Source: Callorhinchus milii (taxonomy: Eukaryota). Taken from it: a DNA stretch of 64,000 nucleotides. Within the stretch, counting starts at the first letter, position 1; the number at the start of each line of letters is the position of its first letter. The stretch lies in assembly GCF_018977255.1 (NCBI RefSeq), contig NW_024704750.1:20894001-20958000 (forward strand), given 5' to 3'. This document shows, piece by piece, positions 14,163-32,462 of the stretch. Under the pieces are notes generated by a model. The model did not search any database, was not told the origin of the DNA, and saw nothing but the letters and a program-made list of their open reading frames with translations. Made by a program: the position numbers and the translations under genes.

Positions 14163-17100
14163 ATTGAGCTCGTAGACTCTGACCATCTTGTCCAGGCACG
14201 CCGTCACCATCACCTTGCCGAGAATGCTGACCACTGTCACCGCATGGCTGTGCCCTTTGTAGATCCGCACCAGCTCTCCCGTCTCCATGACAAGAGCCAA
14301 ACCAGAGAAGTCACTGAACTAAACCAACCCAGCCCTCCACCAAACGCCACAAACCCCCCAGCCCTCCCCCCACTCACCCCAAACCCAGCCCTCCCCCCAC
14401 TCACCCCAAACCCAGCCCTCCCCCAAAACAGCCTAACCCCACCCCCCCAAAACAGCCTAACCCCACCCCCCCAAAACCAACCCAGCCCAAACCCGGCCCA
14501 GGCTACTCCCCAAACCCCTCCAGCCCACTTCAAACCCAGCAGTGCCCTCTAAGTGCCTGTACACCTGTACAAGCCACCCCCACACCCCCCACCAGCACGG
14601 TGCAAGACTCACATGGATGTTGTGTGCGTGCACAGAATGGTCACTGGAGCCACTGAAAACCAAATCATTCACCACCTGAAACACACAGAATATTGTCACC
14701 TCGTGGACACTGTTGTGTTGGCTCCCCCTGGCCCCCAGTGTTTACTGGCCTCTGTACCTTCATGCACAGCACTGTCTTGGTGTGGCCCTCCAGAGTCCGC
14801 AATAACAGTCCGTTCTTGGCATCACGCACGCTGATGGTGCAGTCATAGGATCCCACCAGCAGTAGCCTGCGAGATCCCTCCTGGGCGCTGGACAGACAGC
14901 TGACAGCTCGCGGCCCGTGGCACTCAAACACATCCAACTGGCGGTTACTCTGCAAACACACCACAGGGTTAAACTCAATACCCCTAAACACCCCAGCCCC
15001 AGGCCAACCCCAGCCCAGCCCCAACGCCAGCCCAACACCAGTCCAAACCCCAGCCCAAAACCCAACTCCAAACCCAACCCCAGCCCAACTGAATCACTTA
15101 CCATGCCTGGACCCTCCTCAGCGTCACAGTCATCATCCCACAGCCTTACACTAAACTGCTGAAGTTTAGTCAGCTAAAATCACATAGCTTGCCATTGATA
15201 TTGTTGTCTGGCAATCTTTCCCACTGCTTGTCCAGTGAGGACCACCCTGCCCGTTAGGGCTTTGGCTTAAAGAGTTAATGGGATCTGACTTCTGGTCTTC
15301 CAAGCCCTGTCTTTGGGACTGGCTGGGCTGTCACCAGCAGAGCCCTGGAATACTGAGGACATGCCTGGCTGAGGAAACAGACTGGAGATCACCACAGAGG
15401 GTGGACTGAACTTTGACATTCCGTGGCCAAATATGTCACCTTTGAAGCAGCTGAGCTCCAAGGATACCCCGCACACCCCACTGCACTGTATGTCTATCAG
15501 ATCCGAGCACTTACCTTAACACTGAACGTTATCACCGAACCATTGGCCAGGCCAGCATACAGCATTCGCCACCGATTGTGCAAACTCAGCACCCGATCTG
15601 ATAACACAAACTGCTCCACACATTCCCTGCTCTGTGCCAGAGAGAAGCAGAGTGGTTAGGCACATACCAGCCCCATTACACATTCAGTATCACACGCACC
15701 AGCCCTGATGTCCGCTCAGTATTATACACTCGCTGCTTTGAACCAATGAGTGGGTAGAATAATCTGTTGCAAACGGATTTGAGGCAGAGTCCCGGCACTC
15801 CTTTCACAAGATAATACCATAATTTTACAAATGATGCAGCATCTTTCATGTCAGGAAGATGTTTCAAAGCGCTTATAGGGCATACTGTAAAATATTGTGA
15901 CTGTATTTTGTGGATCAACATGGCAGCCAATTTCCAACATCTGAAATAAATGACCAATTTTATTTGGGGAATTATTGGCCAGAACATCATGAGAAATGCC
16001 CTTCTCCTTTCAAATTATGTAATATTGAAGTGTGTGGGGGAAGCGAGCAGGAATGGGATTAGACTGAGTGGGTTCACATGAGGAAAATCACCAGCAAGCC
16101 TGTGCGGTGTGAACAGCTGTGTGCCGGGCACTGGTACGTGTGGTGAATTTGTTGCTGTGAAACATGCGCACCTCTACATTGTAGCAGCGGATGATTTGGT
16201 CGCTGGAGCCTGTGTACAGTCGAGCGAAGGTGCCGTGTGTCTGGACAATCAGCAAACAGTTCACCTTCGTACTGTGACCCTCAAATGTACCCACGCACTG
16301 ACGACTCTGAAACAGCACGAAGACATTGGGGTCAGGAGAGAACACAGCTTCAAGAGGCCGCCTGCCCCAGCCCACCTCCGCGACCCCCGCTGGCCCCAGC
16401 CCCCGCCGGCCGGGATGCTGTGATATTTTGATTGCAAATGTACTGACGGGAGTCCTGGCGTACCACTAAGTCGTAAACCCGCACAGTTTTGTCAGCAGAA
16501 CAAGTGTAGAGGTGGCCGTTGTGTATCTGCACATCGTTCACTGCTCCCTGGTGCCCCTCAAAGGCTCCCTCCGTGGGCCCCTCTTCATCATCTCCAGCCT
16601 CTGAGGACACCTCTAACAAGAGACAGAACCTGGCATTTAATCTGCTTTCTCACACATCAACACAATGAACCTCATGCAGAATTCAAGATGGTACGGCGTA
16701 TAGCCCAATAACACGCCATAATTCATTTTCTTTTTGTCAGCCATGTGTCTGATATACATGGAGACCCATCGCCACTTCAAAATACCCAAACCAGACAGAG
16801 TCCCACACGTGTAAAACACCTAACCATGGAAATTTTCCTGTGTCTGGAATTGAATGCGCACTCTCACCATGGAGGGACGCATCCTGTTTACCTAATTCCG
16901 AAAAGTATTAGGCACAGGTTGGCAAGAGGCAAGGCTTGGGGACCCCAGAGTGTACGTTGGGGTAACTGCTGGAGTCTAACCATCTAAAATCTGCATAGCT
17001 TGCCACTGAGAGCTCTGTGGGGCAAGCTTTCCCGAACTGAGTTGGATAACTCCCTTCCCCCAATGACTGGTCTGCCCTTCCAAGTTCTGCCGACGAACCA

Positions 17101-29948: not shown

Positions 29949-32462
29949 TGGCTTGGCAGGGTTAACAGGAGCTGAGTGGGAGGTTTCCCTGCCCCCAGTG
30001 ACTGCTGATGTGAGTGTGTCTGGCTGTGTGAGCCTCTCTGACTCCCAAGTCCTGCCGATGGGCTGGATTGTCATCAGCCGTGCCCTGAAGTGCTGTGGAC
30101 ACCTGCCTGGCTCAGGAAGTGAAGTACAGAAATTGTGAGCGATAGAGTGCAATGTGTGCAAATATACACACAGACACAGTGACTGAGAGACTTGCATGGA
30201 CACGGTAACTGTGTGTGTGTTTGCGTGTGTGAGAGAGAAGGACATACACATTACACAAAATGGTGGGATTAAGACAATGAATTCCTGAGGTTAGAGTCAC
30301 AGTGACTGAATGCTCTGCTACTGATGGTGGTGAGGAGAGAGCAGAGATGTGCAGGGCTGAGTTAGCTGAATGGAGGAGGATTTTCACCACAACCTCTGTG
30401 TCCTTGTGTCTTTTGCCTTGGTTTGATGACTAGCTTCTTGGTTGTTTGTCGGGGAGTGGGGCGGGGGGTGGGAGAGAGAGAAACTACTTGCGTTTTAAAG
30501 AAGTTGCATTATGTTGTCTCACTTTCAAAGCCCACCATGGCCTTGCTCCTCCCTACCTCTGTGACCTCCTAAACCCACACCAACCTGCCCACTCCCTCTG
30601 CTCAGCGGTCTCTTTCCTGCTTCACGTCCCCCGCCTTGCCCGCCTCAACATTGGTAGGTGGGCTTTCAGCTACTCTACCCCCACGCTCTGGAACTCCATC
30701 CTGCAGTACATCCGACTCCATCTCAAGACCATCCTCTTCGATCCACCCTTCTTGCCCCCCACTCCCACCCCCCTGATCCCTCCCCCTCCCTCCCCCCCAG
30801 CTAGGGTCCAAAACACTGATTGTCCAGTGTCTTGGGACATCCTCCCGACGTGAAAGGCGCTATACAAATATAACAAATGTAATGTATTCTTCTAAGTGTG
30901 CAGTGGATTCACAATGAGTTATTTTTGGGGGAGTTTAGGTGTAATGGTTCCGAAGAAATATTTCAAAGTATAAATTTGCATCGAAAAGTAGTTTTACATT
31001 GCAAGGCGTGGCCGTGTGCATGTTGGCTTGAATGTTGGCTTGTTTGATCTGTAAAAGTTAATCTTTCAGTGCACTGTTTAAACAGACCAGCAGGTACTTC
31101 CCCTGGCCAGCTCCACATTGTGTTATAAATGTGGTGAGAATTCAGGAACCGCTGTCTTTCTCTCGCTATCCCAGGAGGTGAGAGACAATGTGGTTTGAAG
31201 GGTGGTATTGCTGTGACAAGGGCTGATGTCGGAATGAAAGGCAGAGTTTGTTTTGAGAGGAGGATGATGTTTGGAAATCTTGTGTTTAGCTTGGTGTCCA
31301 CCCTTAGGAAGGATGTGCCAGCTTTCGAGAGCATCAAGCAACTAATAAAATTAATATTGATGACTAATTATAATTAATCCTTGCATTTGACATAGCACTT
31401 TTATGTTGGGAGGATGTCTCAAAATGCTTCACGGCATTGGGGCTTTAAACTCACAGTCTGGACTGATGCTTCAGTGCAATGTTGTGGGGGGAGGGTTACT
31501 GCGTTGTCTGCGGTGCCGTCCTTCAGATGAGATGTTTTAAAGAATGATTGGAAAAGAGTTTCTCCTGGTTGTGGTGCTGGCGACAATGTCCCAGATATTT
31601 GTGGAGCGTTGCTGTCTTCAAATTGGCTGCTGAGTCTGAGCACACAGTCACTGCACTGTAAACATCCTCCCGAAGTGAAAGGTACTGTCTCAAATATAAC
31701 TATTATTCTGCACACTCTTTGTGTCTGTTCTGATGGGTATGTGGTGCTGTAATTACAGAGATGATGACCTAGTGCTATAGTAACAACTGCCTTGTAAGTC
31801 GCCATTGATTCCAGCATTTGAACCTAAACAGACAGCAGAAATTTTTATGCTTGTGTGCAGCTCTCTCTCACCCTACATGTAATCTTTGTTTCTGGTGGTG
31901 TTTCTGGCAACAGTGCCTAGAACTTCCTAGCGTCTCACAGGGAATAGCTGTCAAGTGCAATGCCTCTGACTCTGACGCTGTGCCGGTTTAACTGGCAGAG
32001 TGGCTGTAATGCGAGCATTGATTCATCTGGTGGACATCAGCAGAATGGGTGGTGAACAGAATCGCATGCAAATAATGAGCTACACAAATCAGCTGTTTTT
32101 CCCAAAGGTTTGCAGCACAGTGAGAGGTGCTGTATTCTCGGTGGCCACACTGCATATTCTCTACTTGGCGTTCCATGTAAGTGGCTTTGGCCCCAGTTAT
32201 GTCTTTAACATGTACCTTTGTGAATCTATAGCTCCTGTTTATTTGGTTTACTGTTTACTAATATCTACTGGCCCCCAGCCGATTCAGGCTCCTCGCCAAA
32301 TCCCACCACACCCTCCTGAGATCTTCTCCTGCTGTGTGGCTGGGCTAGCCTGGCCTGGTCATACTGTTTGCTGTTTGGGTACTGCCTTTCAGGTGAACGT
32401 TAACACTGTTCGCAAAAGAGAAGGGAGTTTCTCCTGGTGTCCTGGACAACAATCCCGCAGAT

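Follow-up and report, generated by a model that had tools for sequence, protein, structure and literature searches.

The ZNF106 gene of the elephant shark (Callorhinchus milii) is most likely an ordinary, transcribed gene whose apparent lesions are errors of the present assembly, a reading to which we give a probability of about 87%. C. milii has an intact ZNF106 message, spliced and in frame, which is built from exons of the window (the whole stretch of 64,000 nucleotides analysed here), in which the same exons are found partly in the wrong orientation, shifted in frame, interrupted or accompanied by the loss of both ends of the gene.

ZNF106 exons and the intact message

The window represents the ZNF106 locus of C. 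milii. A search with a 78-residue piece of the encoded protein returned 515 candidates, 482 of them relatives (120 listed), and the two best matches, with 100% identity over this query, were the C. milii models P0001 (ZNF106, XP_007904233.1, 1887 aa) and P0002 (a UniRef entry of 1721 aa). The cluster of P0001 has 5–6 members and is exclusively C. milii. The gene is marked as the orthologue by a C2H2 zinc finger at the N-terminus and WD40 repeats at the C-terminus, both with high identity to named ZNF106 proteins; in the WD40 region 239–245 of 290–291 residues are identical to four sharks and rays. The gene order also agrees, as ZNF106 lies beside three genes which we take to be SNAP23, LRRC57 and HAUS2 (the names given by the sequence-only reading), its usual neighbours in vertebrates such as human. 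All three have open reading frames and are clean, as had been claimed; the wider claim of intact neighbours holds for them and not for the downstream gene HEATR4, which is split by the same inversion as ZNF106. The start codons of LRRC57 and HAUS2 face each other head to head at a distance of about 200 bases (48251–48451), and the interval contains 2.9 copies of a 33-base repeat. HAUS2 is followed on the plus strand (58606–59910) by exons that, judged by eye, resemble a METTL21-type methyltransferase gene.

Independent sequence was found in 24 public runs, 16 with part of the large ZNF106 exon and 12 with half or more of it, in 5 studies. Four runs (X1, X4, X6 and X8, from 3 studies) were aligned to 13300–25770 as contigs, not raw reads, so that rare variants get dropped. 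No run is recorded as RNA; we take X1 and X8 to be RNA because they contain GT-AG joints, and X4 and X6 to be DNA because their pieces (500–1050 bases) continue through introns. Joints between ZNF106 exons are found in both RNA runs for 13 of the 15 listed, and the RNA contigs match the exons with 0–2 other letters per piece. Joined together and with one base removed, 18 pieces (Table 1) encode residues 40–1820 of P0001, that is 1781 residues without a stop, the single difference being S956G (1780/1781 identical; site 24480). The absence of nonsense codons reported earlier is thus confirmed over all 1781 codons, and the nine coding differences between the window and the runs comprise five synonymous, four residue-changing and no nonsense changes, numbers too small to be interpreted further.

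GAG acceptors are rare yet functional. The one in ZNF106, previously counted among the lesions, is indeed present and uncommon, as the 17 acceptors of the gene comprise 14 CAG, 2 TAG and this single GAG, but it is used by both RNA runs in splicing from 14613 to 14282, and no other letters are listed for its three positions in the runs. It is therefore a working acceptor and no lesion. Intronic minisatellites at 7899–8731 and 21546–22143 begin at or next to splice sites, and the 31-base array at 7899 duplicates the exon end with its donor several times, the in-frame donor being the first one, as used in P0001.

Table 1. Positions of ZNF106 and HEATR4 features in the window.
Feature	Positions	Strand	Remarks
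HEATR4 exons before the inversion	95..2809	+	P0127 residues 570–781
Inverted block, left end	6718..6733		7- and 6-base blocks in common with the right end, inverted
ZNF106 WD40 exon within the inverted block	7839..7910	+	transcripts splice into this exon from 14163
ZNF106 exon following the WD40 exon 7839..7910, inverted block	8934..9005	+	24/24 residues identical to P0001
25-N gap	10237..10261		after a 24-base tandem array (26 copies)
HEATR4 exons within the inverted block	12697..13721	-	P0127 residues 782–914
Inverted block, right end	14098..14116		cuts a LINE-like repeat
Twelve further ZNF106 exons	14163..22659	-	all GT-AG joined in X1 and X8
The same, first six	22659-22590, 21331-21177, 20771-20711, 20439-20128, 19401-18630, 17328-17270	-
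The same, last six	16612-16464, 16306-16172, 15631-15515, 14949-14758, 14675-14613, 14282-14163	-
GAG 3' splice site	14283..14285	-	used in transcripts; joint 14282-14613 in X1 and X8
ZNF106 exon with surplus base (24460-24463)	24234..24880	-	647 bases assembled, 646 in runs
Large ZNF106 exon, 3' part	25473..25709	-	79/79 residues identical to P0001
Insert in the large exon	25710..26040		331 bases: ~70 unique bases, C/T-rich tract, 25-N gap (26016-26040)
Large ZNF106 exon, 5' part	26042..27955	-	ends at the N gap; 639/639 residues identical to P0001
ZNF106 zinc-finger exon	29031..29278	-	acceptor 29228/29229; in-frame alternative ATG at 29278

Frameshift, insert and missing exons

The frameshift described by the sequence-only reading in exon 24880–24234 is present in the assembled letters, where the frame breaks after residue 962 and reaches its first stop at residue 990, owing to the surplus base at 24460–24463. 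One base is absent from 24460/24463 in all four runs (3 studies): X4 has no G at 24460 and carries the window's letter at 24480, while in X6, X1 and X8 it is the C at 24463 that is absent, and at 24480 they agree with P0001. The two positions correspond to the two alleles (G/C) of one synonymous leucine site, with both letters side by side in the window. Since the runs hold either letter and the window holds both, the frameshift is explained as a mixed-allele consensus error, in which a heterozygous G/C site was probably written as an insertion. The idea of a collapsed assembly of two haplotypes is in this respect supported, and for the remaining lesions it was right in spirit. Two further letters of the window, at 24435 and 25604, differ from all four runs, both synonymously.

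The junction at 25709, thought to be deletion-like, turned out to be one side of an insert. Residues 743 and 744 of P0001 adjoin across 26041/25708 and nothing is deleted. The X1 RNA contig departs from the window at 25709 and continues with 30 letters identical to window 26042–26071, so the segment 25710–26040 is absent from this transcript. No splice acceptor was found in the insert, and its unique part has no source within the window beyond chance matches of 11–15 bases; the sequence at the 25709 junction itself is free of gaps. The aligned piece of X4 appears to stop at 25709 as well, as its from_end value of 106 equals that of X1; the X8 contig ends earlier and the end of X6 lies 41 letters from 25604.

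ZNF106 residues 1–39 (exons 1–2) and 1821–1887 (the last two exons) are lacking from the window: in a six-frame scan the best matches reached at most 8/25 identical residues, compared to 21/21 for a control piece. The earlier remark that there are no recognisable upstream exons is borne out, and the last two exons, which it did not name, are missing too. Both segments occur in P0001, and in part in P0002 and P0122–P0124; P0001, P0002 and the shark proteins start with a first zinc-finger segment that is absent from the window. It is likely that the gap at 10237–10261 marks the place of the two last exons. Upstream, 29278 and SNAP23 (36024) are not separated by any N gap that would account for the absence of exons 1–2, which speaks against an artefact. 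A repeat copy at 29441 starts abruptly where it meets a C/T tract, and other copies of the repeat extend beyond this point, which weakly hints at a mis-join. The CpG profile of 28001–37000 gives a weak hint as well, with no clear island before 36001.

The in-frame ATG at 29278, in a 5' extension of the zinc-finger exon, matches the start of mammalian and bird proteins. Among 124 stored proteins 17 start as at this ATG (4 from C. milii and 13 others, including named mammals and a bird), 42 start with the longer form, and the remaining 65 are partial or of another kind. The short alternative N-terminus encoded by 29278–29229 (minus strand) is recognisably conserved between chimaera, mammals and a bird, which hints that 29278 may be an old alternative start.

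The inverted block and HEATR4

The inversion noted previously is present in the assembled letters as a block of ~7.4 kb (~6720–14110) with one of the 25-N gaps inside. A TBLASTN search with P0001 places residues 39–1771 on the minus strand (29230 to 14163) and residues 1772–1820 on the plus strand (7839–7910 and 8934–9005). The X1 and X8 contigs, from two of two studies, leave at the donor 14163 and continue with window 7839–7868 on the opposite strand, and the transcripts therefore have the normal exon order.

The block also reaches into HEATR4. We mapped the HEATR4 protein of the sharpnose sevengill shark (P0127) on the window, and since its residues 782–914 map to the opposite strand, the inversion flips the end of this gene, too. 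The C. milii RefSeq model of HEATR4 (P0126, 771 aa) halts at the inversion break. HEATR4 likely continues to about 11050; its likely last exon, 11050–12097 (minus strand), carries a long tandem repeat that is coding and acidic (unit of 54 bases, 5.4 copies; also units of 27 bases), and no match to P0127 was found in 11050–12097. With the block turned back, HEATR4 and ZNF106 lie tail to tail.

The ends of the block cut a LINE-like repeat, probably L2-like. Its halves, 13741–14098 and 6719–6499, correspond to neighbouring segments of an intact copy (22150–22502). The best rejoin, at 14098–14101 / 6718–6722, scores 145.5, and the assembled arrangement 77.0 and 62.5; for two other reference copies the scores are 79.5 (64.5/17.0 as assembled) and 97.5 (45.5/51.5), at looser positions. 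Shark HEATR4 and the split repeat together indicate that the un-inverted order is ancestral, so that the assembled orientation is derived and has two defined breakpoints, as would a true inversion allele. Both junctions are free of N. No long inverted repeat was found at the ends of the block, either in the 25 longest of the 44 pairs or in self-BLAST matches of at least 60 bases, and no DNA contig crosses the repeat-rich site at 14110 among the listed joints and loose ends of the stretch aligned (13300–25770).

Origin of the apparent lesions

How would an ordinary gene come to look so damaged then? On the assembly-error explanation, the consensus would have written a heterozygous G/C site as two bases, one for each allele, the ~7.4 kb block would have been put in backwards, contigs would have been cut inside the large exon and rejoined around a gap and foreign sequence, and exons 1–2 and the last two exons would have been lost beside low-complexity tracts and the tandem array. 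The encoded protein would have ~1887 residues and the usual combination of zinc finger and WD40 repeats. Indeed, the lesions fall at gaps or low-complexity tracts and are at odds with independent data. There are three runs of N in the window (10237–10261, 26016–26040 and 49169), and the two 25-N gaps, unmentioned in the sequence-only reading, each lie within a ZNF106 lesion, which favours assembly error.

Some observations point the other way. The junctions are gap-free, and the ends of the inverted block share 7 + 6 bases of inverted homology, as real repair junctions can have. Moreover, the proof of one intact allele given by the transcripts concerns other animals and not both alleles of the assembled one. 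The assembled animal may thus have carried a real rearranged haplotype, with the inversion, the insert and the loss or displacement of exons 1–2 all genuine and the frameshift alone a consensus error, which would inactivate ZNF106 and HEATR4 on one chromosome. The absence of N at ~6720, 14110 and 25709, the short inverted homology and the clean cut through the LINE-like repeat would all fit this, the high rejoin score (145.5 vs 77.0/62.5) being obtained on one of three reference copies. However, such a haplotype would need three separate rearrangements within 23 kb, two of them with an assembly gap inside and next to a frameshift which is itself a mixed-allele error, and the rearrangements are seen in none of five other C. 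milii models and in neither of the two RNA runs. We consider this reading unlikely, and equally unlikely that the animal was a natural carrier of a complex haplotype knocking out ZNF106 and HEATR4 that may segregate in wild animals.

Less probable still is a decaying duplicate or sex-linked copy at this locus with the working gene elsewhere, as the pseudogenised duplicate or gametolog of the sequence-only reading would have it. Several apparent lesions in one copy would fit, as might the WD40 region, in which 230–234 of 291 residues are identical to three tetrapods, with a horn-shark protein slightly closer to them (239–242/291). But the transcripts match the exons of this very copy nearly letter for letter, the locus adjoins SNAP23, LRRC57 and HAUS2, its codons lack any nonsense change, and no diverged second C. 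milii protein is found among the 120 listed of 482 matches or the 6 cluster members. Spliced transcripts read in frame across the break of the inversion, the site of the frameshift and that of the insert, and intact models exist from the same species, so that the proposal is not supported. A recent pseudogene is likewise not supported: no disabling mutation is shared, with the surplus base in 0 of 4 runs and the insert absent in X1, and intact spliced transcripts do exist, as the joints common to both RNA runs attest.

It would be remarkable if a vertebrate had truly lost ZNF106, given the loss of motor and sensory neurons in mouse (PMC4706115, in excerpt), and the evidence here shows no such loss. 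According to the same excerpt, knockout of mouse Zfp106 leads to degeneration of motor and sensory neurons, and a fixed loss is therefore unlikely; mouse Zfp106 is also a subject of PMC5283830 and PMC11295049, as excerpts of these sources indicate. By the source names of the matches it belongs to the same gene family as the gene in the window, but the phenotype data are from mouse, while C. milii ZNF106 is known here from sequence and transcript contigs alone. Our search of the literature on ZNF106 in Callorhinchus found no paper.

Assembly error, which we prefer, also has practical consequences, as the stretch comes from a much-used reference species and truncates two gene models, of ZNF106 (P0121) and of HEATR4 (P0126). 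Gene-loss or synteny studies relying on it would be misled. P0121 (XP_042194160.1, 1760 aa) is entered in RefSeq for C. milii as "LOW QUALITY PROTEIN: zinc finger protein 106", and through it the defects of the locus are already flagged by the RefSeq annotators. Its first codon is the 29278 ATG, its frame changes in the exon with the window's frameshift, and it ends prematurely by reading into the intron after 14163; unlike the window, it bridges the 25709/26041 break, and the inverted exons are not used. Five other C. milii models (P0001 and the UniRef entries P0002 and P0122–P0124) span all three breaks. P0001 has the same exon order as the RNA contigs and, one base aside, is identical to the window in all but one of residues 40–1820, while the window differs from it in the insert, the surplus base, the two exons on the opposite strand and the absence of residues 1–39 and 1821–1887.

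Draft assemblies are a known source of false gene losses, which arise from mis-oriented blocks, indel errors and dropped low-complexity exons. The present case is unlike the typical one in that the inversion junctions are free of N, but, just as in such false losses, the ZNF106 lesions are concentrated at gaps and tracts of low complexity and disappear when transcripts and other reads are consulted.
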